Origin: Haloarculaceae archaeon
Lineage (GTDB): Archaea; Halobacteriota; Halobacteria; Halobacteriales; Haloarculaceae
Direction of reading: 5' to 3'
Assembly: GCA_036625595.1 (NCBI GenBank)
Contig: JAZKTK010000002.1
Span: 3,552-67,551, forward strand
Length of the DNA: 64,000 nt
Positions within the stretch are counted from its first letter, which is position 1. Each line of letters begins with the position of its first letter. The translations under genes and the position numbers were made by a program. The notes beneath the pieces were generated by a model, which worked only from the letters and a program-made list of their open reading frames with translations, did not search any database and was not told the origin of the DNA. This document shows positions 7,678-20,457 of the stretch, piece by piece.

Positions 7678-7825
7678 TTAGCAGGCCAGCACCCAATATT
7701 CCAGTCGTTATATTTCCATTGCAATATTCGTACATCGGTTCGACTAATTTAAATACGGTTTCCATGCGTGAAGATATTCGGGAGGATAGGAAACTTAATT
7801 CGGCTACAAGAGAGAGTGGTTGGTA

Positions 7826-8851
7826 ATGACCAGCGTAGGTCTCACCGGCTATGGTCGGTATACGCCGGAAGAGGTGGTGACTGGGGAAGAGATTGCCAAC
7901 CGGAGTGGGATTCCGGAAGAAGTCGTCGTCGAGAAGATGGGGATGCGCGAAAAGCGCGTCTGTCCACCGGACGACGACCACGTAACAGATATGTCCATCG
8001 CGGCGGGCGAAGATGCCCTCGAGGATGCCGGCGTCGACGCCGACGAGTTGGACCTCGTGCTCTATCACGGCAGCGAGTACAAGGACTACGTCGTCTGGTC
8101 GGCTGCCGCGAACATCGCCGAGCGCATCGGTGCCGAGAACGCGTACGCGACCGAGAGTTACACGCTGTGTGCCGGCTGTCCCATCGCGATGCGGACGGTC
8201 CGCGCACAGTTGGTCGCCGACAGCGTCGACACAGCGCTGCTGGTGACGGCCTCCCGCGAGGAGGACCTGCTGGACTACGAGAACGAGAACTCCTCGTTCA
8301 TGTTCAACTTCGGCAGCGGCGCAGCGGCGTACGTAATGGAACGTGACCCAGCAGAAGAGCGCACACGCGCCTGGGTCCACGGGAGCGGTGCCATCACTGA
8401 CGGGTCCTTCTCAGAAGATGTCGTCATGCCCGCCGGTGGGTCGAAGAACCCACCGACACGGGAGACCGTCGAGCAGAACCGCCACACGCTCGACGTGCCC
8501 GACCCCGAGGGAATGAAAGAGCGCATCGCGCCCGTCTCGCTACCGAACTACCTCTCAGTGGCCGAGGAAGCACTGGACAAATCGGACTACGAACAGGACG
8601 ACGTAGATTTCGTCGCCGTCACGCACATGAAGCGGTCGTTCCACCAGACGTTGCTGGAGGAACTGGGTGTCGACCCCCAATCGGACGGCTACTACCTCGA
8701 CGAGTACGGTCACATGCAGAGTGTCGACCAGATTTTCGCGCTTGACGAGGGACTGGAGCGTGGGCGCGTCGAGGACGGTGACGTAGTGCTCTTTCTCGCG
8801 GCCGGGACCGGATACACCTGGTCTGCGACGGTGCTCGAGTGGCTCGGCTGA
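7826..8851 (+). CDS. Beta-ketoacyl synthase III (FabH)-like condensing enzyme
   Basis: The thiolase-fold pattern shows an active-site Cys in ESYTLCAGCP, a His in VAVTHMK, and GHMQS where FabH has GNTS. I prefer the ATG at 7826 to the TTG at 7820. Confidence 0.75.
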   Translation: MTSVGLTGYGRYTPEEVVTGEEIANRSGIPEEVVVEKMGMREKRVCPPDDDHVTDMSIAAGEDALEDAGVDADELDLVLYHGSEYKDYVVWSAAANIAERIGAENAYATESYTLCAGCPIAMRTVRAQLVADSVDTALLVTASREEDLLDYENENSSFMFNFGSGAAAYVMERDPAEERTRAWVHGSGAITDGSFSEDVVMPAGGSKNPPTRETVEQNRHTLDVPDPEGMKERIAPVSLPNYLSVAEEALDKSDYEQDDVDFVAVTHMKRSFHQTLLEELGVDPQSDGYYLDEYGHMQSVDQIFALDEGLERGRVEDGDVVLFLAAGTGYTWSATVLEWLG

Positions 8852-8931: not shown

Positions 8932-9648
8932 ATGAGCCGACTACGCATCGCCCTGTTGAACGCGGCCCACGACGGCGCGGACACCCGCCGGAACTTCCGG
9001 CGCGAACTGGACGCAGACCTCGTGGAGTTTCACTGTCCTGAAGGTGAACTCCCCGAGACGTTCCAGTTCGACGCCTGTGTCCTCACGGGGTCGCGAGCCT
9101 CCGTCTACTGGGACAAGCCCTGGATTGGGGAGCTAAAGTCCTACGTGGGCGATGCCATCGACACCGGAATGCCGATGCTCGGCGTCTGTTACGGTCACCA
9201 GCTACTCGCGGACGTACTCGGCGGCAGCGTCGAGGACATGGGCGAGTACGAAATCGGCTATCGAACCGTCGAACACGACGGCGAGAACACGCTGCTCGCA
9301 GGCGTCGACGACCAGTTCACCGTCTTTACGACCCACTCCGACCGGGTGGCCGAGGCCCCGCCCGGAGCCGAGGTGTTCGCCCGCAACGAGTACGGCATCC
9401 ACGGCTTCCAGAAGGGCAACGTCTTCGCGGTGCAGTTCCACCCCGAGTACGACACGGCGACGGCCGAGGACGTGGCCTCCGGCAAGGACCTCCCCGAGGA
9501 GCGCATCCAGCAGGTTCTGGAGGGCATCAACGCAGCGAACTACGCTGCGGCCTGTGAAGCCAAGACGCTCTTCGACAACTTCACCCAGTTCGTTCGCGAG
9601 CGCGCACACGGCGGTCAGACCGGTACGGCGAGCGCTGCCGACGACTAA
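8932..9648 (+). CDS. Class I glutamine amidotransferase (GATase1) domain protein
   Basis: The nucleophile elbow is LGVCYGHQLL and the His-Glu pair sits in FHPEYD. The length (~240 aa) is typical. Confidence 0.8.
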   Translation: MSRLRIALLNAAHDGADTRRNFRRELDADLVEFHCPEGELPETFQFDACVLTGSRASVYWDKPWIGELKSYVGDAIDTGMPMLGVCYGHQLLADVLGGSVEDMGEYEIGYRTVEHDGENTLLAGVDDQFTVFTTHSDRVAEAPPGAEVFARNEYGIHGFQKGNVFAVQFHPEYDTATAEDVASGKDLPEERIQQVLEGINAANYAAACEAKTLFDNFTQFVRERAHGGQTGTASAADD

Positions 9649-9792: not shown

Positions 9793-10260
9793 TCAAGAGT
9801 GTCTGACAGTCTCTGCACCACACACCTCACAGATGCCCAGCAACGCGTCCCGGTCCTCGGTCGGTTCGACCCGAATCTGCTGGCGCTCGCCGCAGTCGGG
9901 ACACTCGCGAACGATTTCGGTTTCGCCGGTTGCTGCGGGCGCGCCGAGTGCGAGCGCGACGACGGGTTCGTCGCTCTCGTTGCGGCCAAGTTGCCACTCG
10001 CCGGGTGCAAATCGAATCGCCTCACCCGCGGACACCTCGACGTCGCCGCCTTCGGTTTCGAACGTCGCAGTTCCCTCCAGCACGTAGAACAGTTCCTCCT
10101 GGTCGGCGTGACGGTGGTAGCCAAAGCCGAAGGTCTCGCCGGGGGCGAGTTCGTAGTGGTTGAGTGCGAGATGCTCCGCACCGAGGGCATGTGAAATCGA
10201 GCGCTTGGCAGTTGCGGGGCTCATCCACGAATCGATGTCATCGAGACTGGTGTGGTCCAT
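9793..10260 (-). CDS. Cupin domain protein with a C-terminal zinc ribbon
   Basis: The cupin motifs are GYHRHADQEELFYVLEG and IRFAPGEW. The C-terminal CPDCG...CEVCG forms a zinc ribbon. Confidence 0.75.
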   Translation of the reverse strand: MDHTSLDDIDSWMSPATAKRSISHALGAEHLALNHYELAPGETFGFGYHRHADQEELFYVLEGTATFETEGGDVEVSAGEAIRFAPGEWQLGRNESDEPVVALALGAPAATGETEIVRECPDCGERQQIRVEPTEDRDALLGICEVCGAETVRHS

Positions 10261-10441
10261 ACGGTAGTGTGTCTCGGCCAGCGCAAATAGCGTATCGGCT
10301 GTGCTGATTCGGTGCAGTCGAACCCGCGCCGTCGGGCAAACGTGCCAACACTCCAGCAGGAATTCCGCCGAGGGCGGCAGTGTGGCCGAAAAAGGTGAGA
10401 AAGTTTATCCGCGCATACACGCGTAGTTTGATACACAAGAG

Positions 10442-12406
10442 ATGGTCGATGGGAACGACGCGGGACTGAGTACACATCAGCCCGCGGACGAACGGCTCTC
10501 GCCCCCCGAGTCGTTCATCGAACAGGCGAACGTCACCGACGAGTCGGTGTACGAAGAGTTCGAGGAGAACTGGCCCGACGCGTGGGACCGCGCGGCCGAC
10601 CTCCTCGACTGGGAAGCGGACTACGACCAGATACTCACCGAGGAAAACGACGCGTACCGGTGGTTCACCGGCGGGTCGCTCAACGCCTGTACGAACTGCG
10701 TCGACCGGCACCTGCCCGAACAGAAAAACCAGCGCGCGCTCGTCTGGGAGGGACAACTGGGCGAACGCCGCAGTTACACGTATCTCGAACTCTACCGCGA
10801 GGTGAACGAGTTCGCGGCCGCGCTCCGGTCAATTGGTGTCGAAGAGGGAGACATCGTCACGTTGTACATGCCGATGATTCCGGAGTTGCCGGTCGCGATG
10901 CTGGCGTGTGCTCGCATCGGCGCGCCCCACTCGGTCGTCTTCGCGGGTTTTTCGGCGGACGCGCTCGCGACACGGATGGACTCGGCTGACTCGGAGTATC
11001 TGGTCACCTGTGACGGCTACTACCGGCGCGGCGACGCCGTGACACTGAAAAACAAGGCAGACACCGCGAGTGCGGCCGTCGACCAGAACGTGACATCAGT
11101 CGTCGTCGACCGACTGGACGGCTACGAGTGTACCCTCGGCGACGACGAACACGACTACGCCACGCTCGTCGAGGCCCACGAGAGCGAGCGAGTGACCCCT
11201 GTCGAACGGGATGCGACCGACGACCTCTTTCGCATCTTCACTTCCGGGACGACCGGTGAGCCGAAGGGGGTCACCCACACGACCGGCGGATACCTCTCCT
11301 ACGTCGCGTGGACCTCCCATGCGGTGCTGGACATCAAACCCGAAGACACCTACTGGTGTTCGGCGGATATCGGCTGGATTACCGGCCACTCCTACATCGT
11401 TTACGGGCCACTCGCACTCGGAACGACGACGGTACTGTACGAGGGAGCGCCAGACCACCCCGAAAAGAACCGCCTCTGGGAGATTATCGAACGGCAGGCA
11501 GTCGACGTGTTTTACACCGCGCCCACGGCGATTCGGGCGTTCATGAAGTGGGGCGAAGAGTATCCCGACAAACACGACCTCTCCTCGCTTCGCCTGCTCG
11601 GCACGGTCGGCGAGCCGATTAATCCGCGCGCATGGAAGTGGTACTACAAACACATCGGCAACGAAAACTGCCCCATCGTCGACACCTGGTGGCAGACCGA
11701 AACTGGCGGGGTCCTCATCACCACACTTCCTGCTATCACGGACATGAAACCCGGCTCTGCCGGGCCGCCGCTGCCGGGAATCAGCGTCCGAATCGTCGAC
11801 GGCGACGGCGAGGAGGTACCGCCCGGAGACGGCGGGTATCTGGTGGTCGACAAGCAGTGGCCGGGGATGCCACGGGAACTCTGTGAAGGACGGGCGTGGG
11901 CCGCCGACGCGGGTGCCGTTGCATCGCCACCCGAGGACGCAGACTGGTCCTATCGAACCGAGGACGGGGCCCTTGCCGACGAAGATGGGTACGTCACCAT
12001 CCTGGGACGGGTCGACGACGTCATCAACGTCTCGGGCCACCGATTCGGGACGATGGAAATCGAGTCAGCAATCGTCGACGTCAAAGGAATCGCCGAAGCG
12101 GCCGTCGTCACCGGCACCCACGATATCCGCGGCAAGGCCATCTACGCGTACGTCAGCACGGAAGACGACTACGAGGACACCGATGGGTTGCGTCAGGCAG
12201 TCGTCGACGCCGTCGAAGACGCCATCGGCCCGATTGCCCGCCCGAAGGCGGTCGTGTTCTCGCCGGACCTCCCGAAAACACAGTCGGGCAAAATCATGCG
12301 TCGCCTGCTCGAAGATATCGCCAACGGCGAGGAACTGGGCGATTTGAGCGCGCTCAGAAATCCGGAAGTCGTCGGAGAAATCGAATCGGCAGTTCGGAGC
12401 GACTGA
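10442..12406 (+). CDS. acs: Acetyl-CoA synthetase (AMP-forming), paralog 1
   Basis: Full-length ACS pattern: FIEQANV..YEEFEENWPDAW, YMPMIPE, FTSGTTGEPKGV, DTWWQTETGG, and PKTQSGKIMRRLL carrying the conserved catalytic Lys. Confidence 0.9.
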   Translation: MVDGNDAGLSTHQPADERLSPPESFIEQANVTDESVYEEFEENWPDAWDRAADLLDWEADYDQILTEENDAYRWFTGGSLNACTNCVDRHLPEQKNQRALVWEGQLGERRSYTYLELYREVNEFAAALRSIGVEEGDIVTLYMPMIPELPVAMLACARIGAPHSVVFAGFSADALATRMDSADSEYLVTCDGYYRRGDAVTLKNKADTASAAVDQNVTSVVVDRLDGYECTLGDDEHDYATLVEAHESERVTPVERDATDDLFRIFTSGTTGEPKGVTHTTGGYLSYVAWTSHAVLDIKPEDTYWCSADIGWITGHSYIVYGPLALGTTTVLYEGAPDHPEKNRLWEIIERQAVDVFYTAPTAIRAFMKWGEEYPDKHDLSSLRLLGTVGEPINPRAWKWYYKHIGNENCPIVDTWWQTETGGVLITTLPAITDMKPGSAGPPLPGISVRIVDGDGEEVPPGDGGYLVVDKQWPGMPRELCEGRAWAADAGAVASPPEDADWSYRTEDGALADEDGYVTILGRVDDVINVSGHRFGTMEIESAIVDVKGIAEAAVVTGTHDIRGKAIYAYVSTEDDYEDTDGLRQAVVDAVEDAIGPIARPKAVVFSPDLPKTQSGKIMRRLLEDIANGEELGDLSALRNPEVVGEIESAVRSD

Positions 12407-12552
12407 GTCCGCCGAATTTCGCGTTTGGTGTGGGAAACGAAAACAATAGCGGATATAGACGCGGTTATTAATTATCATAATTGAGGTAGCGAAGGTGACG
12501 AGCCGGCGAAAGACCTTTACAACAGTTTCGCATACGCCCTGTAAGTCGAAGT

Positions 12553-14283
12553 ATGGCAGAAGCTGCAGAGGAGATTCGCCTGACAGAGCGAGAGTACGAG
12601 CAACTGCGTCAGTCGACGGAGACGTACCGCGAGGAACTGCTCGTGCGCCTCTGTGGCGAGGTGGGGCTCCGTGCAACCGAAATTCCGCGTCTCAAGCCTG
12701 CGGACGTGCAGAGTCTCGGTGGAGAGGGGCGGACCCAGTACTTCATCACAGTCCACGAAGGCGACAGTGGGACGCGAGAAGCGTATCTGCCACCGCGTGT
12801 CGCACACGATTTCTGGCAGTACGTCCGGAGCAACGACATCGAAACGGACCAGCCGGTTATCGACGTGTCGGCACGGCGGGTACAGATGCTCGTCGGTGAA
12901 GTCGGTGAACGAGCCGCAGAGTGGGCAGGACGGCCCACGCTCGCATCGGTGACACCCTCTATCCTCCGCCGGTATTTCGCCCAGCAGTTACTGGTCAGCA
13001 AAGGAGTTGACCCACGAATCGTGACCACTATCGGCGGCTGGGAAGGCGTCGACGGACTGCTCCCGCCGCTGGAGGAACCGCCGCGCGACGAGATTTCAGC
13101 GGCATTCGAACGGCTCGAAGACGGGCAACACGGAGCCGGGAAATCGGCCCGTCTTCGAGCGGTCGTCAAGACACTCGACGAAGTCGGCGAGGGACTCTCG
13201 GCAGCGGGCTCGAGAGGCGAGATAGAGGACAGCGTCTGCCAGACAATCGTCGCCGACGAAACCTACGAAGCGGCGTGGGTCACCGAGCGCGAGCGCCACC
13301 GCGAGCGCATCGACGTGCGCACGCACGCGGGAGAAGACCCGGAACGGTTCGACGGCGAGGGTGATACGACGCTCATCAGACAGGCACTCCAGAGCAACCG
13401 CGTTCTGGTCGCACCTGACAGACCACAGCCGGGAGCCGCCGAACGGGGACTGCTCGCAGCGATTCCGCTGGTCCACGGAGAGACGACCTACGGTGCGCTC
13501 GTGGTCCGTGCGGACACGCGCGGTGCGTTCGACGACCCCGAGCGGACAGCGCTTGCAGACCTCGGACGGCGTATTGGGCTAACGATCACTGCGACCGAGC
13601 GGCGCCAGTTACTACTCGGCGACACCGTCGTCAGGCTCACACTGCAGTACACCAATCGGTCGGCGGTTCTCGTCGACCTCTCGCGGACGCTCGACTGCGA
13701 TATCGAACTGACGGGCGTCGTGGCTGCCGACGCCCACTCGCTGTTGTGTTTCGTCACCGTCGACGGAACCGCTCCGGAGACGGTGTTGAACTGGGTGTCA
13801 GAAACTGACAGTGTGGGCGATGCACGCCTTATCCGGAGCTTCGAAGACGGGGCGCTGCTCGAGATGGTCATCGAGAGCGACTCACCGGCGCTTGCACTGA
13901 CCGAGCGCGGCGGAACAGTTACCGAACTCGGTGTCGAGAGCGGAACGGCGACGATAGTGACGGAGTTCGCTCCGAACGTCGGCGTTCGCCCGCTGATAGA
14001 CGAACTGAACCGACAGTTCCCCTCCGTCGAGTTGCGGAGCAAACAGGAGGTCACACCGACCGACCAGACGCCCGCTGGCTTCCGGGAATCGATAGACGAA
14101 AAGCTTACCGAGAAACAGCAGTCGGTGTTGCGGGCAGCGTATCACGCCGGATACTTCGAGTGGCCGCGCGGCTCGACCGCAGAAGAACTCGCCGAGTCGA
14201 TGGACATCTCCTCGCCGACACTCCACAACCACCTGCGGCGCGCCCAGCAGAAACTCCTCGGCGTCGCCTTCGACGACGAGTGA
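12553..14283 (+). CDS. Transcription regulator: degenerate tyrosine-recombinase-like domain + GAF + BAT + HTH_10 (Bat-type)
   Basis: The N-terminus aligns by eye to the integrase catalytic fold (GLRATEI..., TPSILRRYFAQ, IGGWEGVD), but the His and Tyr positions are replaced. The middle is GAF-like (…IPLVHGETTYGALVV…). The C-terminus LTEKQQSVLRAAYHAGYFEWPRGSTAEELAESMDISSPTLHNHLRRAQQKLL is a classic HTH_10. Confidence 0.8.
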   Translation: MAEAAEEIRLTEREYEQLRQSTETYREELLVRLCGEVGLRATEIPRLKPADVQSLGGEGRTQYFITVHEGDSGTREAYLPPRVAHDFWQYVRSNDIETDQPVIDVSARRVQMLVGEVGERAAEWAGRPTLASVTPSILRRYFAQQLLVSKGVDPRIVTTIGGWEGVDGLLPPLEEPPRDEISAAFERLEDGQHGAGKSARLRAVVKTLDEVGEGLSAAGSRGEIEDSVCQTIVADETYEAAWVTERERHRERIDVRTHAGEDPERFDGEGDTTLIRQALQSNRVLVAPDRPQPGAAERGLLAAIPLVHGETTYGALVVRADTRGAFDDPERTALADLGRRIGLTITATERRQLLLGDTVVRLTLQYTNRSAVLVDLSRTLDCDIELTGVVAADAHSLLCFVTVDGTAPETVLNWVSETDSVGDARLIRSFEDGALLEMVIESDSPALALTERGGTVTELGVESGTATIVTEFAPNVGVRPLIDELNRQFPSVELRSKQEVTPTDQTPAGFRESIDEKLTEKQQSVLRAAYHAGYFEWPRGSTAEELAESMDISSPTLHNHLRRAQQKLLGVAFDDE

Positions 14284-14563
14284 GGATGGGTAGTGTACGC
14301 ACACCCCATGAGAATCGATGACACTAGGTGTCTAGGGACTGGAGAGCCAAAGACGTTCCCCGAGGCCACAAATCGCTGATGGCGTCTCGGGACCAGTGGC
14401 GGGCAACGAAGTGGACAGATACGGGTATATAAAAATATGCGTTAACGACAATATTTTACAGTAATAATCGCCCATAATTTTCACATTGTTTTCCCGGAAT
14501 AATGTAAAATTGGGATAATTAGCGCTGTTCCTTAATATGGAGGTTGATGGAGGAGTGTCTGCA

Positions 14564-16543
14564 ATGTCAGACGACGACGAACTCGACGTAGAACTTGAGG
14601 CTCGGCTCGAAGAACAGGAGGAATTCGAGCCACCGGAATCGTTTGTCGAACAGGCAAACGTCACAGACGAGGGGATTTACGAGGAATTCGAGGAGAACTG
14701 GCCGGATGCGTGGGAACAGGCGGCCGACCTCCTCGACTGGGAGAGCGAGTACGACACCGTACTCGACGAGAGCGAAGCGCCGTTTTACAAGTGGTTCACC
14801 GGTGGGTCGCTCAACGCATCGGAGAACTGCCTCGACCGGCACCTCGACGAACGTGGTGACGAAGCCGCAATCGAATGGATTGGCGAACTCGGGGAAGAAC
14901 GCACGTACACGTACGAAGACCTCCATCGTGAGGTGAACGAGTTCGCGGCTGTGCTCCGTGACCAGGGCGTCCAGGAAGACGACGTGGTGACGATGTACAT
15001 GCCGATGATTCCAGAGCTGCCCATCGCGATGCTGGCGTGTGCCCGCATCGGCGCACCTCACGCCGTTGTTTTCGCGGGCTTCTCCGCAGATGCACTCGCG
15101 ACACGGATGAACGCCGCCGACTCGGAGCACCTCGTCACCTGTGACGGCTACTACCGGCGTGGTGACCCGCTTCAGCACCTCGACAAGGCCGAAGAGGGAC
15201 TCGAATCGGTCGACCAGGACGTGACCTCGATTGTCGTCGACCGCCTCGAAGACGACTTCGACCACGACCTCGGTCCGAGCCAGCACGACTACCACGACCT
15301 GCTGGCAGACCAGGAAGGCGCGACGGTCGAGCCGGTCAGCCGCGACGCCGAGGACATGCTGTTCCTGATGTACACGTCGGGAACCACGGGCAAACCGAAG
15401 GGTGTCAAACACACCACCGCAGGATACCTGGCCTACGCCGCCTGGACTTCCCACGCGGTGCTGGACATCAAGCCCGAGGACACCTACTTCTGCTCGGCAG
15501 ACATCGGCTGGATTACCGGCCACTCCTACATCGTCTACGGGCCACTCGCGCTCGGGACGACCTCGGTTATGTACGAGGGAACGCCGGACTACCCGGACAA
15601 AGACCGGATGTGGGAAATCGTCGACGACCACAACGTCAACCAGCTGTACACCGCGCCCACGGCGATTCGGGCGTTCATGAAGTGGGGCGAGGAGTACCCC
15701 AACAAACACGACCTCTCCTCGCTTCGCCTGCTCGGCACGGTCGGCGAGCCGATTAATCCGCGCGCATGGAAGTGGTACTACAAACACATCGGCAACGAAA
15801 ACTGCCCCATCGTCGACACCTGGTGGCAGACCGAAACTGGCGGGATGATGGTGACCACCATCCCCGCAATCAAGAACATGAAACCCGGCTCTGCCGGGCC
15901 GCCGCTGCCGGGAATCAGCGCGGATATCGTCGACGAGAAGGGGTCCCCGGTCGAGGCCGGCCGCGCGGGCTATCTCGTCGTCAACAAGCCGTGGCCCGGG
16001 ATGCTCCGGACGCTGTACAAAAACGACGAGCGATTCATCGACGAGTACTGGGACGAGTACTCGATTCCGGAGAAAGACCAGTGGGTCTACTTCCCGGAAG
16101 ACGGTGCGAAAATCGACGACGACGGCTTCATTACCGTGCTCGGACGCGTCGACGACGTCCTCAACGTCTCCGGACACCGCCTGGGAACGATGGAAATCGA
16201 ATCAGCAATCGTCGGTGTTCCCGGCGTCGCGGAAGCAGCAGTCGTCGGGGGCGACCACGAGATGAAAGGCGAAGCAGTTTACACCTACGTCATCACCGAG
16301 GATGGCTACGAAGGTAACGAAGAACTTCGCCAACAGATTATCGAAGCCGTCGAGGACAGCATCGGCCCGATCGCACGGCCCGAGGCAGTCGTGTTCACAC
16401 CCGAACTGCCCAAGACGCGCTCGGGCAAAATCATGCGCCGCCTACTCGAGGACATCGCCAACGGCGACGAACTCGGGAACACGTCCACGCTGCGTAATCC
16501 AGAAGTCGTCGAGGACATCGCCAAAAAGGCGCAAGACGACTAA
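14564..16543 (+). CDS. acs: Acetyl-CoA synthetase (AMP-forming), paralog 2
   Basis: It carries the same ACS motifs as paralog 1 (YTSGTTGKPKGV, DTWWQTETGG, PKTRSGKIMRRLL). I prefer the ATG at 14564; an alternative in-frame ATG lies at 14537. Confidence 0.9.
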   Translation: MSDDDELDVELEARLEEQEEFEPPESFVEQANVTDEGIYEEFEENWPDAWEQAADLLDWESEYDTVLDESEAPFYKWFTGGSLNASENCLDRHLDERGDEAAIEWIGELGEERTYTYEDLHREVNEFAAVLRDQGVQEDDVVTMYMPMIPELPIAMLACARIGAPHAVVFAGFSADALATRMNAADSEHLVTCDGYYRRGDPLQHLDKAEEGLESVDQDVTSIVVDRLEDDFDHDLGPSQHDYHDLLADQEGATVEPVSRDAEDMLFLMYTSGTTGKPKGVKHTTAGYLAYAAWTSHAVLDIKPEDTYFCSADIGWITGHSYIVYGPLALGTTSVMYEGTPDYPDKDRMWEIVDDHNVNQLYTAPTAIRAFMKWGEEYPNKHDLSSLRLLGTVGEPINPRAWKWYYKHIGNENCPIVDTWWQTETGGMMVTTIPAIKNMKPGSAGPPLPGISADIVDEKGSPVEAGRAGYLVVNKPWPGMLRTLYKNDERFIDEYWDEYSIPEKDQWVYFPEDGAKIDDDGFITVLGRVDDVLNVSGHRLGTMEIESAIVGVPGVAEAAVVGGDHEMKGEAVYTYVITEDGYEGNEELRQQIIEAVEDSIGPIARPEAVVFTPELPKTRSGKIMRRLLEDIANGDELGNTSTLRNPEVVEDIAKKAQDD

Positions 16544-16559
16544 CCCCTCTACACAAACA

Positions 16560-17003
16560 ATGACAGACAACGACACAACCGAGCCGACTGATGGCTCGAC
16601 TGACGACGTACGAACCGACGGAGGTGTGGTGTCCCAGGAGCGGTCCACCAACTACCTCGAAACCGAAATAAACATACTGAGTCCGAGTACGCCCTTTATG
16701 CGCGACCACCTCAAGGTGGTCTGGGGCGGCTTCATCGCGTGGCTCCTCATCACATGGGGGCCGTTCCTCGCGACGGTGGCCGCACCCGGAACGATGACTA
16801 CGCAGCTCCCGGTCATCGGCTTCCCGGCGCACTACTTCCTGATCGCGTTCGGCGCGCCGACCGGGTCGCTCATTCTCGCGTTCGTTTACGCGAAAAAGCG
16901 CGACCAGCTCGACGAGAAGTACGGTATCGACCCCGCGGCCGAGGGAGCGACCCAGACCAGCAGTGAGGGCGCTGCTGCCACCGACGGAGGGGTCGACGAA
17001 TGA
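16560..17003 (+). CDS. Small membrane subunit associated with the SSS symporter (DUF4212-like)
   Basis: 147 aa, with an acidic N-terminus and two TM helices (VVWGGFIAWLLITWGPFL, HYFLIAFGAPTGSLILAFVY). Its stop overlaps the start of the symporter gene (ATGA at 17000-17003). The family name is from memory. Confidence 0.7.
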   Translation: MTDNDTTEPTDGSTDDVRTDGGVVSQERSTNYLETEINILSPSTPFMRDHLKVVWGGFIAWLLITWGPFLATVAAPGTMTTQLPVIGFPAHYFLIAFGAPTGSLILAFVYAKKRDQLDEKYGIDPAAEGATQTSSEGAAATDGGVDE

Positions 17004-18640
17004 TAGAGGCAGTACCGCTGCAGGCTGAGGCGCTGGACATCTCGTTCAAGCCGGTCGGCGCGGCCATCGTCATCCTGATGATGCTGTCGTTCCTCGCCAT
17101 CGGCTACTTCTTCAAGGTGGCCGACACCGACGGGATGTGGGTCGCCGGCCGTGGTATCGGGAACATCGAAAACGGGATGGCAATCGGTGCCAACTGGATG
17201 TCCGCCGCGTCCTATCTGGGACTAGCCGGCCTGATTGCCCTCGCGGGCTTTTACGGTCTGGCATTCGTCGTCGGCTGGACGACCGGCTACTTCATCCTGC
17301 TCATCTTCATGGCCGCACAGATGCGCCGGTTCGGGAAGTACACCGCACCGGACTTCGTCGGTGACCGCTTCAATTCATCGACGGCGCGTGCGCTGGCAGC
17401 GTTCACGACGCTGCTCATCGCGTACGTCTACTCGGTCGGGCAGGCCTCCGGGATGGGTCTGGTCGGGCAGTACGTCTTCGGGCTCGACTTCGTCCCGATG
17501 GTCATCGTGATGATGGCCATCACCATCGGCTACCTCGCGCTGTCGGGGATGCTCGGCGCGACGAAGGGGATGGCCGTTCAGTACGTCATCCTCATCGTCG
17601 CCTTCCTCGCAGGCGTGTACGCGGTCGGCTTCTCGCAGGGCTACTCGACGGTTCTGCCACAGATCGAATACGGCGCACTGATCGGCGAACTCAACCGTCA
17701 GTTCTCCGAGCCGTTCGCCGGTGCCGGAGCGTGGCTCTGGGCGAGCACCGCGTTCTCGCTCATCGTCGGGACCTGCGGGCTCCCGCACGTCCTCGTGCGC
17801 TTCTACACGGTCGAAAGCGAGCGGACCGCCCGCTGGTCGACCGTGTGGGGACTGTTCTTCATTCTGCTGCTGTACTGGGCCGCACCCGCGATGGCCGCGT
17901 TCGGTGTCGACCTCTTCGAGACCACGCAGGGTGCCAGCGCCTTCGCCGCCGAGGGCGGCATGACCGGCGCGGAAGGTGACGTCATCGTCGTGCTCGCGGC
18001 GCAGTTCGCGAATCTCCCGCAGTGGTTCGTCGGCTTCGTCGCGGCCGGTGCGATGGCCGCCGCAATCGCGACCACGGCAGGCCTCTTCATCACGGCCTCC
18101 TCCGCGGTCTCACACGACATCTACTCGGAACTCATCAACCCCGACGCGACCCAGCGCCAGCAGGTCCTGCTGGGCCGTGCGACCATCATCGGCATCGGTG
18201 CGCTGGTCACCCTGACCGCGCTGGACCCGCCGGCGCTCATCGGACAGCTCGTCGCGCTGGCGTTCTCGCTGGCGGGCATGGTGCTGTTCCCGATGTTCTT
18301 CCTCGGTCTCTGGTGGGAGAACGCGAACCGCCAGGGCGCACTCGCCGGGATGATCACCGGGCTGGCACTCTGGACGCTCGCGACAATCAACACCACCGTC
18401 CTCGCCGAGCCGTTCAGCCCGCTGCTCGCCGAGTGGGTGCCCGGCATCGGCGCGGCACTCATCGGCACGCCGCTTGTCTTCCTTGTCACCATCGTCGTCT
18501 CGCTGGTGACCCCCGAACCGGACGAGCGGACCAAGCAGATCGTCCGCCAGTGTCACAGTCCCGAGCCGATGGGACAGCAACAGACCGCCGAAGACGTCGT
18601 CGCTGCCGACGGGGGCCAGGAGACCCCCGCGGACGACTAA
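17000..18640 (+). CDS. Sodium:solute symporter family permease, probable acetate/monocarboxylate transporter (ActP-like)
   Basis: 546-aa polytopic membrane protein with SSS-type features (…GIGNIENGMAIGANWMSAASYLGLAG…, ...GLPHVLVRFYT…). It is translationally coupled to the small subunit and lies downstream of acs. Confidence 0.8.
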   Translation: MIEAVPLQAEALDISFKPVGAAIVILMMLSFLAIGYFFKVADTDGMWVAGRGIGNIENGMAIGANWMSAASYLGLAGLIALAGFYGLAFVVGWTTGYFILLIFMAAQMRRFGKYTAPDFVGDRFNSSTARALAAFTTLLIAYVYSVGQASGMGLVGQYVFGLDFVPMVIVMMAITIGYLALSGMLGATKGMAVQYVILIVAFLAGVYAVGFSQGYSTVLPQIEYGALIGELNRQFSEPFAGAGAWLWASTAFSLIVGTCGLPHVLVRFYTVESERTARWSTVWGLFFILLLYWAAPAMAAFGVDLFETTQGASAFAAEGGMTGAEGDVIVVLAAQFANLPQWFVGFVAAGAMAAAIATTAGLFITASSAVSHDIYSELINPDATQRQQVLLGRATIIGIGALVTLTALDPPALIGQLVALAFSLAGMVLFPMFFLGLWWENANRQGALAGMITGLALWTLATINTTVLAEPFSPLLAEWVPGIGAALIGTPLVFLVTIVVSLVTPEPDERTKQIVRQCHSPEPMGQQQTAEDVVAADGGQETPADD

Positions 18641-18643
18641 CCA

Positions 18644-19117
18644 ATGTACGATAATATACTCGTTCCGACAGACGGTAGTGTGACCTCGGAAGTAGCAGTC
18701 GACAACGCCGTCGACATCGCCGAAAAGTACGGTGCGACGATACACGCACTGTACGTCATCGACGTCGACGCGACCAGTTACGGGCTGGGCACCGAACAGG
18801 TCGACCGCATCCGACAGGGCCACCTCGACGACATGCCCGAGGTGAAAGACGACGCCGACGAAGCGACCAGCTACGTCGCCGCCGCGGCCGAAGAGAGGGG
18901 CGTCGACTACGAAGAGCACATTCGTATCGGCGAACCCGCCCGGGCAATCCGGAACTTCGTCGAAGAGGAGAACATCGACCTCGTCGTCATGGGGTCACAC
19001 GGGCGGTCTGGCCTCTCGCGGGTCATCCTCGGCAGCGTCGCCGAGAAGGTCCTGCGACGGACCCACCTGCCCGTCCTCGTCGTGGACAGTCACGAACTCC
19101 ACGACGACGAGGAGTAA
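18644..19117 (+). CDS. Universal stress protein (UspA family)
   Basis: The N-terminus is MYDNILVPTDGS and the ATP-binding motif is VMGSHGRSGLSRVILGSVAEKVLRRTHLPVLVV. Confidence 0.85.
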   Translation: MYDNILVPTDGSVTSEVAVDNAVDIAEKYGATIHALYVIDVDATSYGLGTEQVDRIRQGHLDDMPEVKDDADEATSYVAAAAEERGVDYEEHIRIGEPARAIRNFVEEENIDLVVMGSHGRSGLSRVILGSVAEKVLRRTHLPVLVVDSHELHDDEE

Positions 19118-19596: not shown

Positions 19597-20457
19597 ATGA
19601 TACAGACACTCACAAACGGTGTGACGGTAGTACAGCCAGAGATTATCCTCCAGATGACACAGAGCGAGGCGTTCGAGTTTATCCACGACGACGCACTGCT
19701 CGCGTCGTCGCTGTGGGCGAATATCGCGCTCGCGGGGCTAGCGATACTCCTCTTTGTGTATATGGGTCGGAACATCGAAGACCCACGGGCACAGCTCATC
19801 TGGGTCGCCACGCTGCTGGTGCCGCTGGTCTCGATATCGAGTTACGTCGGACTCGTCTCCGGGCTGACCGTGGGATTCCTGGAGATGCCGGCAGGGCACG
19901 CCCTCGCCGGTGAAGGCGGTGTCTTCTCACCGTGGGGTCGATATCTCACGTGGACGTTCTCGACGCCGATGATTCTCGCGGCGCTCGGACTGCTCGCCGG
20001 GACGAACCGGGCAAAGCTCACAACGGCAATTACGATGGACATCGGGATGTGTATCACCGGACTGGCCGCCGCACTGACGACCGGCTCGTACCTGCTGCGA
20101 TGGGTGTTCTACGGTATCAGCTGTGCCTTCTTCGTCGCGGTGCTCTACGTCCTGCTGGTCGAGTGGCCTGCAGACGCAAACGCTGCCGGGACAAGCGAGA
20201 TCTTCGGGACGCTCAAGGTGCTGACTGTCGTGCTGTGGCTGGGCTATCCGATTCTGTGGGCGCTCGGCGCGGAGGGATTTGCCGTCCTCGACGTCGCACT
20301 CACGTCCTGGGGATACTCCGGACTGGACATCTTCGCGAAGTACGTCTTCGCGTTCCTGCTGTTGCGCTGGGTGGCTGCAAACGAGCGCATTATCGGCAGG
20401 ACAGACAGCATCGCTGAAGAGACGACGACAAGCAGCGCCAGTCCGGTCGACGACTGA
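19597..20457 (+). CDS. hop: Halorhodopsin (light-driven inward chloride pump)
   Basis: It is strongly similar to Halobacterium salinarum HR as I recall it: LASSLW.N.ALAG.AIL.FVYMGR, WGRYLTWTFSTPMIL (Arg, Thr and Ser of the chloride site replace the DTD of bacteriorhodopsin), GLAAALTT, VLWLGYPI.WA.G.EG, and DIFAKYVFAFLLL carrying the Schiff-base Lys. Confidence 0.92.
   Translation: MIQTLTNGVTVVQPEIILQMTQSEAFEFIHDDALLASSLWANIALAGLAILLFVYMGRNIEDPRAQLIWVATLLVPLVSISSYVGLVSGLTVGFLEMPAGHALAGEGGVFSPWGRYLTWTFSTPMILAALGLLAGTNRAKLTTAITMDIGMCITGLAAALTTGSYLLRWVFYGISCAFFVAVLYVLLVEWPADANAAGTSEIFGTLKVLTVVLWLGYPILWALGAEGFAVLDVALTSWGYSGLDIFAKYVFAFLLLRWVAANERIIGRTDSIAEETTTSSASPVDD

Follow-up and report, generated by a model that had tools for sequence, protein, structure and literature searches.

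A Bat-type regulator between two haloarchaeal acetate–CoA ligase genes carries a tyrosine-recombinase domain that has probably been domesticated

The canonical bacterio-opsin activator Bat carries an N-terminal PAS domain. A different N-terminus is found in fam30-04, one of 17 archaeal tyrosine-recombinase families, for which the accessible part of a review lists the domains Phage_integrase, BAT and HTH_10 (+GAF_2) (Badel, Da Cunha & Oberto 2021, FEMS Microbiol Rev, PMC8371274). That a recombinase fold can serve in regulation is known from MrpR (YopR), the master repressor of the Bacillus subtilis prophage SPbeta, which has the tyrosine-recombinase fold without recombinase activity and is a DNA-binding regulator (PMC10516654). 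In Haloferax volcanii, the genes acs7 (HVO_A0156), HVO_A0155, ssf and uspA28 form a 4.6-kb co-transcript, which was detected in acetate-grown cells only (Kuprat et al. 2020, PMC7746861); the symporter transports acetate, and acs8 is HVO_A0158 (PMC7746861). Here we describe a gene located between two acs genes on a 64,000-nucleotide (nt) stretch of DNA, the window, from a Haloarculaceae archaeon (assembly GCA_036625595.1, contig JAZKTK010000002.1, positions 3,552 to 67,551). From its letters, an original prediction had proposed a Bat-type regulator of acetate assimilation with an apparently inactivated phage integrase domain at its N-terminus. The reading that we favor, and which we hold to be rather probable, is that the gene product regulates the acetate cluster and contains a domesticated, non-catalytic recombinase domain that would bind the DNA backbone and/or bridge subunits.

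Four Pfam domains follow one another in the protein, in the order Phage_integrase, GAF_2, BAT and HTH_10 (Table 1), and the three C-terminal ones had been named correctly beforehand. The GAF region is also matched by GAF_3 (30.4 bits, cut-off 27) and corresponds to an alpha/beta fold predicted at residues 221-357 in an AlphaFold2 (AF2) model of the full-length protein. No PAS domain was detected by Pfam in the window regulator, whereas longer orthologs have one inserted between the recombinase-like domain and GAF. With BAT preceding a C-terminal HTH_10, the protein groups by its domains with the Bat/HTH_10 one-component regulators; in RefSeq, such proteins are named 'bacterio-opsin activator domain-containing protein'.

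The relationship of the N-terminus to tyrosine recombinases was seen with several methods. PF00589 matched residues 9-164 with 28.5 bits in the whole protein and with 32.3 bits when residues 1-190 were searched alone, the check that had been proposed (cut-off 27.1). The NCBIfam model of archaeal XerA gave 42-45 bits for residues 8-162, far below its equivalog cut-off of 220, which makes the domain a relative of XerA and not XerA itself. XerA of Pyrococcus abyssi (4a8e, E 8.7e-7) was also the sole sequence match of the domain in a phmmer search of the PDB. AF2 modeling of residues 1-215 with 36 sequences of the family reached a mean pLDDT (predicted local distance difference test) of 89.6 and a pTM (predicted TM-score) of 0.80. 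Foldseek comparison of this model with the PDB yielded 66 matches at E<=0.001, of which the first 49 were all tyrosine recombinases, led by Tn1549 Int, XerA, XerH, integron IntI, Cre, lambda Int and P2 Int (prob 1.00, TMq <=0.64); XerA 5hxy aligned with a TM-score of 0.64 and a root-mean-square deviation of 3.7 A. Since profile and structure matches agree, the recombinase-like domain is real and not a chance profile match, and by profile and predicted fold the N-terminus is a tyrosine-recombinase catalytic domain, as had been supposed. A core-binding (SAM-like) domain was not found with PF02899 or PF13495, the catalytic domain beginning at residue ~9. Stand-alone relatives of about 200 amino acids (aa), described below, likewise lack it, and so do recombinases of the size of FimB/FimE.

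Active-site residues were assigned by alignment to XerA and to the protein's own family, together with the spacings given for Cre, XerH and lambda Int (Arg-I+3 = Glu, His-II+3 = Arg-II, His/Trp-III+9 = Tyr; Table 3 in PMC10516654). Arg-I (R40), Glu (E43) and Arg-II (R139) are all kept. By contrast, S136 stands at the His-II position, the HxxRH box being represented by S136/R139/R140, and P172 (nt 13066-13068) occupies the position of the Tyr nucleophile, nine residues after W163 at His/Trp-III. The stretch from residue 142 to 200 contains no Tyr, and in both AF2 models residues 162-177 form a coil, essentially without the Tyr-bearing helix of recombinases. As the nucleophile is gone, no covalent 3'-phosphotyrosyl intermediate would be possible, and from the residues Ser136 and Pro172 recombination by the window regulator can be regarded as excluded. 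The residue calls of the original prediction were all correct and so was the apparent inactivation of this copy, an intact catalytic set being absent with the loss of His-II and Tyr. Only the Trp in place of the GH histidine, which had been counted among the signs of inactivation, has to be judged differently. Trp at His-III is a Cre-type variant (W315 in Cre; Table 3 in PMC10516654) and is shared by the intact stand-alone relatives; W163 is therefore not a sign of decay. In the XerA alignment, the invariant R75 corresponds to the Lys of the beta2-beta3 hairpin. In the stand-alone proteins this hairpin is longer and contains two invariant Lys (GK..GGKPR), while it is shortened by deletion of this stretch in all fused forms; the catalytic Lys is not assignable from sequence.

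The same positions were inspected in 128 fused members of the family and in 15 stand-alone relatives. Because the homolog set leans towards the clade of the window protein, the family-wide percentages are approximate. While all 15 stand-alone proteins possess Arg-I, Glu, R75, His-II, Arg-II, Trp and Tyr, the fused forms show two kinds of positions. Arg-I (R in 118/128), Glu and R75 (127/128 each), Arg-II and Trp (128/128 each) are conserved to 92-100%. His-II, on the other hand, is a His in only 4/128 proteins, i.e. ~3% (S 69, R 27, T 12, A 8 and others), and the Tyr column is hypervariable, with Y in 17/128 and 13 other residues. The complete set R-H-R-W-Y was encountered in four fused members only (P0120, L034, L041 and L042). 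Regarding the fate of the tetrad in the orthologs, the loss applies to the His and mostly also to the Tyr, while both Arg and the Trp are retained, and it is not uniform: inactivation is graded and lineage-specific across the fused family, not all-or-none.

Among 67 full-length orthologs, down to 38% identity, invariant residues are concentrated in the recombinase-like domain (16) and in HTH_10 (18), compared to one in GAF and three in BAT. Those of the recombinase-like domain are T24, R26, L29, G38, E43, R75, R108, R109, Q111, M112, L138, R139, L147, G161, G162 and W163. This pattern indicates that the domain is under strong purifying selection and that this selection is aimed at the residues holding the scissile phosphate and at further arginines, not at the chemistry. 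Of all parts of the protein, this domain is the least acidic, with a family-wide net charge per 100 aa of -4.0, compared to -8.6 for GAF+BAT; K and R make up 13.6% of its residues, nearly as much as in true recombinases (14.3%).

The 190-aa domain is widespread. A six-frame search detected it in 149/201 Halobacteria genomes belonging to 52/67 genera, and once in the window's own genome. Among the 150 matches listed, approximately 110 lie in frames of 555-970 aa (fused) and approximately 40 in frames of ~200-233 aa. The same two size classes, with the domain always N-terminal, emerged when 1.84 billion representative proteins were searched with a profile (131 representatives at E<=1e-30). To call the combination of an integrase fold with a metabolic regulator unusual, as the original prediction did, thus overstates its rarity, the more so as the accessible part of the review already contains the architecture as fam30-04.

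The proteins of the smaller class are the nearest sequence relatives of the window domain (35-43% identity over ~185 residues). They pass PF00589 at 34-46 bits, are annotated as 'site-specific integrase' and are encoded by plasmids and megaplasmids of haloarchaea (82 plasmid records, among them pNRC100/200, PHS4 and Haloarcula marismortui pNG200); examples are WP_011222149.1 (Haloarcula marismortui pNG200) and WP_012289605.1 (Halobacterium salinarum PHS4). Like the fused domain, they comprise the catalytic domain only and have Trp at His-III as well as R75. What separates them from it is the full set R...GK..GGKPR...HxxR...W...Y, present in 15/15 proteins (GLR...E, the GK..GGKPR hairpin, SSHDLRR, GGW, and EPYL with Tyr at W+9), their location on plasmids, often in several copies, and the fact that they never adjoin acs. 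A maximum-likelihood tree split fused and stand-alone domains with 100/100 support, the fused branches being longer. Rooting with the canonical recombinase of the genome was attempted and discarded; the root is unreliable because the outgroup branch is too long (7 substitutions per site). A phage origin of the domain was likewise rejected, as none of 50,697 phage records contained a match to the stand-alone form.

Some further observations concern the stand-alone proteins and the recombinases of this genome. A near-perfect palindrome, CGACTTGT-N4-6-ACAAGTCG, lies ~100-115 nt upstream of stand-alone integrase genes (loci L055-L065, e.g. L059 and L063) and may be a recombination or autoregulatory site of these integrases. 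Catalytic-domain-only recombinases of the type R-K-H-R-W-Y seem to be uncharacterized; they are often multicopy, with eight matches in one genome (G121). The only other PF00589 match in the 95%-complete genome of the window is a recombinase of ~340 aa (G000:C71:1017-1568, L066) with the motifs GMRAGE...NKRKRP...PHYFRH...YLRGD...DTYTH, in which Asp replaces His/Trp at His-III.

The genetic neighborhood connects the regulator with acetate metabolism. Both flanking genes pass TIGR02188, which agrees with the two acs paralogs named originally, and the order acs-regulator-acs on the same strand was found in 20/20 loci of the fused form, covering 10 haloarchaeal families of GTDB. It occurs on chromosomes and on megaplasmids, and in 16/20 loci the genes for the small subunit, the SSF symporter and the universal stress protein (Usp) follow downstream in the same order. 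On pHV4 of Haloferax volcanii, the sequence of genes is acs, HVO_RS02565 (WP_004043086.1, bacterio-opsin activator domain-containing), acs, DUF4212, VC_2705 symporter and Usp; to judge from its position, HVO_RS02565 should be the gene with the old tag HVO_A0157. Because the regulator has acs on both sides in 20/20 loci and its neighborhood agrees in gene order with the acetate-induced operon published for Haloferax volcanii, the proposed link of the regulator to acetate assimilation is strongly supported by synteny. A search of the accessible literature for 'bacterio-opsin activator' together with acs returned nothing relevant.

In the window, a rhodopsin gene with the motif RYLTWTFSTPMIL is located at 19597-20457 (+), 480 nt downstream of the Usp gene. 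It has Thr at the position of bacteriorhodopsin D85, which is typical of halorhodopsin chloride pumps. A Bat-like link of the regulator to this gene was considered and rejected since a rhodopsin gene is present in 0/20 other loci; the vicinity of the two genes is coincidental because the rhodopsin gene is not a conserved neighbor. Three open reading frames (ORFs) on the 5' side of the cluster were classified by inspection of the sequence only. The one at 7820-8851 looks thiolase/KAS-III-like and the one at 8932-9648 glutamine-amidotransferase-like. The third, at 9793-10260 on the minus strand, looks cupin-like, ends in a C-terminal CxxC...CxxC and had no NCBIfam match at E<=1e-5.

Table 1. Positions of the acetate cluster genes, the regulator domains and candidate control elements within the window
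Feature	Position	Strand	Evidence or remark
acsA, AMP-forming acetate--CoA ligase, H. volcanii acs8 counterpart	10442..12406	+	TIGR02188, 791.6 bits (cut-off 724.95)
Distal inverted repeat TTTCG-N16-CGAAA, TTTCGCGTTTGGTGTGGGAAACGAAA	12417..12442 (G000:C125:15968-15993)		acsA-regulator spacer, pattern match
Proximal inverted repeat TTTCGC-N14-TCGAAG, candidate autoregulatory operator	12526..12551		TTCG-N12-26-CGAA conserved at regulator starts
Regulator, coding sequence	12553..14283	+	576 aa (P0001)
Degenerate tyrosine-recombinase catalytic domain, residues 9-164	12577..13044	+	Pfam, XerA alignment, AF2, Foldseek
GAF domain, residues 223-345, presumed ligand sensor	13219..13587	+	GAF_2, 34.2 bits (cut-off 28.6)
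BAT domain, residues 357-512	13621..14088	+	PF15915, 143.4 bits, match 1-156/156 (full model length)
HTH_10 DNA-binding domain, residues 518-569	14104..14259	+	PF04967, 86.7 bits
acsB promoter: ATAATTAG box (14515-14522), 8-nt spacer, TATA-like CTTAATA (14531-14537)	14515..14537	+	Candidate upstream activator site
acsB, acetate--CoA ligase, H. volcanii acs7 counterpart	14564..16543	+	TIGR02188, 853.7 bits (cut-off 724.95)
Sodium/substrate symporter small subunit (DUF4212), HVO_A0155 counterpart	16560..17003	+	TIGR03647, 61.5 bits
VC_2705-family SSF symporter, H. volcanii ActP/ssf counterpart	17000..18640	+	TIGR03648, 502 bits
Universal stress protein, uspA28 counterpart	18644..19117	+	Present in 16/20 loci

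To identify candidate operators, three promoter regions were compared across the loci by an alignment-free motif comparison against shuffled sequences. CGAAA/TTTCG words are abundant in the acsA-regulator spacer (26 per kb in 21 loci), compared to 2.5-3.4 per kb in the two neighboring promoter regions. A repeat of the form TTCG-N12-26-CGAA lies <=75 nt from the regulator start in 17/21 loci (shuffle mean 0.21, max 2); between its end and the ATG there are 0-8 nt, in most cases 2-5 nt. In the window, the proximal repeat ends 2 nt before the regulator ATG and begins just past TTTA (12516-12519). Going by general knowledge of archaeal promoters, it would overlie the region from TATA to the start, as expected for an autorepressor site.

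Upstream of the downstream acs gene, the pattern TTAG-N8-11-YTT[AT] was found in 13/20 loci (shuffle mean 0.62, max 5). Conservation of this box extends to GNATARTTAG; some lineages have ACACCTAG. A YTTA TATA element follows the box at a distance of 8-11 nt and, in orthologous loci, precedes the ATG by 31-37 nt. By the usual layout of archaeal promoters, the box in front of acsB would be at the place of an upstream activator site. The combined pattern ATARTTAG-N8-10-YTTA occurs at only three sites in the 3-Mb genome, each of which precedes the start of a same-strand ORF by 5-38 nt. The acsB site precedes the ATG at 14537 by 5 nt and the ATG at 14564 by 30 nt, while the distances of the other two are 28 and 38 nt. 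Since the first in-frame ATG (14537) overlaps the TATA-like CTTAATA, and in view of the TATA-ATG spacing of the orthologous loci, acsB probably starts at 14564 (MSDDDELD...), with a leaderless or near-leaderless mRNA. By eye, the site at G000:C64:32074-32093 (L072 1001-1020), 28 nt upstream of an ORF of 526 aa, is followed by a PAS-containing chemotaxis transducer-like protein, and the site at G000:C111:19517-19536 (L073 1001-1020), 38 nt upstream of an ORF of 266 aa, by an HTH regulator-like protein. These two ORFs could be additional targets of the regulator, or of whichever factor reads the box.

Taken together, the gene may be considered a one-component Bat/HTH_10-type transcription regulator dedicated to the cluster acs-regulator-acs-small subunit-SSF-Usp. 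Its GAF (+BAT) module would sense a metabolite tied to the acetate supply, and its C-terminal HTH_10 would bind promoter DNA, thereby turning on the acsB-symporter operon and controlling the regulator's own promoter. The N-terminal 165 residues presumably share ancestry with the ~200-aa plasmid integrases, and their fusion to the regulator would be an early event in Halobacteria. Selection for catalysis has apparently ceased in the fused proteins, while the phosphate-gripping residues Arg-I, Glu, R75, Arg-II and Trp are nearly invariant; with catalytic residues lost and these residues preserved, the domain most likely acts without catalysis. It could be a second DNA-backbone-binding and/or bridging module that aids assembly of the regulator on its targets. 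The best candidates for the latter are the ATAATTAG box at the position of an activator site and the ~26-30 bp TTTCG...CGAAA repeat over the regulator's own promoter, at the position expected for autoregulation. Domain identity, active-site state, conservation pattern, synteny and conserved motifs are what the analysis demonstrates, whereas responsiveness to acetate, the pairing of domains with sites, and activation as opposed to repression are inferred.

A more specific version of this mechanism is conceivable, though we regard it as doubtful: dimers of the recombinase-derived domain would read the TTTCG...CGAAA repeats, which have the size (~26-30 bp) and symmetry of a recombinase core site, while HTH_10 would sit on the ATAATTAG box, bridging ~2 kb and coupling autoregulation to acetate-dependent activation. 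If this were true, a cellular metabolic switch would have been made from a domesticated plasmid recombinase whose active-site pocket grips DNA instead of cutting it.

Several points weigh against the reading as a DNA-gripping regulator of the acetate cluster. The core-binding domain, which completes the DNA clamp of real recombinases, is absent from the regulator, and instead of DNA, a small anion could just as well be the ligand of the conserved Arg/Arg/Trp pocket. The packing of the domains in the full-length protein is not interpretable because the pTM of this AF2 model is only 0.40. It may also be that the conserved motifs are recognized by other factors or are simply parts of the promoters. 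TTTCG-N15-21-CGAAR yielded 154 matches genome-wide, compared to 29 for the control, and defining a regulon by a scan of the window's own genome was abandoned since the pattern is too unspecific. Nor is TTTCG...CGAAA evidently a relic recombination site, as it is unlike the palindrome of the stand-alone integrases; inheritance of the operator repeat from the latter was rejected because only 1/15 has TTCG...CGAA upstream. In addition, no regulator is named in PMC7746861 or in a 2024 paper on acs of Haloferax mediterranei, and HVO_A0157 is mentioned nowhere in the searchable literature.

Other explanations for the N-terminal domain have to be set against the same data. It is unlikely that the domain is an oligomerization scaffold only, joining regulator subunits in the way recombinase catalytic domains pack within synaptic complexes, making no DNA contact and leaving all DNA recognition to HTH_10. 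Tyrosine recombinases do assemble via their catalytic domains, XerA crystallizes as a dimer (title of 4a8e), and the regulator already has a strong, highly conserved HTH_10 but no core-binding domain. Nevertheless, a scaffold leaves unexplained why Arg-I, Arg-II, Trp and Glu are conserved to 92-100% while neighboring catalytic positions drift, and why the domain is relatively basic within an acidic halophile protein. Quite unlikely, in our view, is a ligand sensor whose Arg-Arg-Trp pocket binds acetate, acetyl phosphate or the phosphates of AMP, CoA or acetyl-CoA. Such a function would fit the location of the domain at the N-terminal spot where Bat paralogs carry PAS sensors, the conservation of the pocket but not of the nucleophile, and a pathway handling carboxylate and phosphate-bearing metabolites. 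However, a GAF sensor is already present, longer orthologs carry PAS plus the recombinase-like domain, and further invariant basic residues (R26, R108, R109 and R120), which lie outside the pocket, point to an extended polyanion surface instead of a small pocket. Moreover, we know of no tyrosine-recombinase fold that binds small molecules.

That the regulator might still be an enzyme, i.e. a recombinase, an invertase or a nicking/topoisomerase-like protein rearranging or relaxing DNA at the acs promoters, is hardly credible even though 4/128 fused members keep R-H-R-W-Y and the stand-alone relatives appear to have all that catalysis requires. In the window protein, Pro and Ser occupy the Tyr and the His-II positions, respectively, 111/128 members are without the Tyr, and the Lys hairpin is shortened. 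Besides, gene order and orientation are identical in 20/20 loci, so no rearrangement is seen. An invertible segment in the region 10000-17200 was sought and dismissed, as the 17 inverted-repeat pairs are all imperfect, fall within GC-rich coding sequence and do not bracket a promoter convincingly. Finally, the regulator could be a passenger in the acs cluster that controls genes elsewhere, another factor inducing acs-ssf on acetate. The ATARTTAG-TATA pattern does precede two unrelated genes in this genome, and the evidence tying the regulator to acs transcription is indirect, which is a further point to the disadvantage of the favored interpretation. Yet a fixed place between acs genes in 20/20 loci of 10 families would be hard to keep without a functional link, and conserved motifs flank the regulator gene on both sides, so that we consider a passenger very unlikely.

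The architecture of the regulator is already known, since the window protein has the Pfam domains of fam30-04 and is a member of this family. As far as its accessible part goes, the review proceeds by domain content and contains nothing on the loss of catalytic residues, on the acs context or on a regulatory role. As judged from the searchable literature, nobody seems to have described the pattern of active-site decay, the inability of most members to act as recombinases, the sister relationship to plasmid integrases, the universal linkage to acs or the candidate operators. According to their active-site residues, most members of fam30-04, including the window protein, cannot be recombinases, and the filing of fam30-04 as a recombinase family would be corrected accordingly. 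The data also point to a concrete candidate for the protein that controls acetate-inducible uptake and activation of acetate in haloarchaea; its ortholog is encoded on pHV4, between acs8 and acs7, in Haloferax volcanii, a genetically tractable species. Furthermore, intact plasmid recombinases and fused, decaying descendants in the same genomes offer a clean natural case for the domestication of an enzyme as a regulator. Kojima and Jurka are said to have reported in 2011 that animal Crypton tyrosine recombinases were domesticated into host regulatory proteins; these cases are eukaryotic and transposon-derived, and their architecture is unrelated.

With Bat of Halobacterium salinarum and other HTH_10 regulators, the window protein shares the C-terminal GAF-BAT-HTH_10 cassette, and like Bat it is probably a one-component regulator acting upstream of a TATA box. 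It differs in that a recombinase catalytic domain replaces PAS and in its putative target, which is acetate assimilation instead of bop and carotenoid genes. MrpR (PDB 8bj6/8A0A) ranked 50th in the Foldseek search with the AF2 model (E 2.3e-4), while the phmmer search of the PDB revealed no sequence relation to it. Both have a dead recombinase fold, so MrpR may be viewed as an analogue of the regulator domain but not as a member of its family. MrpR is a stand-alone phage protein with core-binding and catalytic domains, whereas the haloarchaeal domain is cellular and fused to GAF-BAT-HTH_10. The remains of the active sites are opposite as well, as MrpR keeps Lys and Tyr and has lost both Arg and the His (Table 3 in PMC10516654). 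Hence, the residues kept in the haloarchaeal domain are the mirror image of those in MrpR, the only characterized dead-recombinase repressor.

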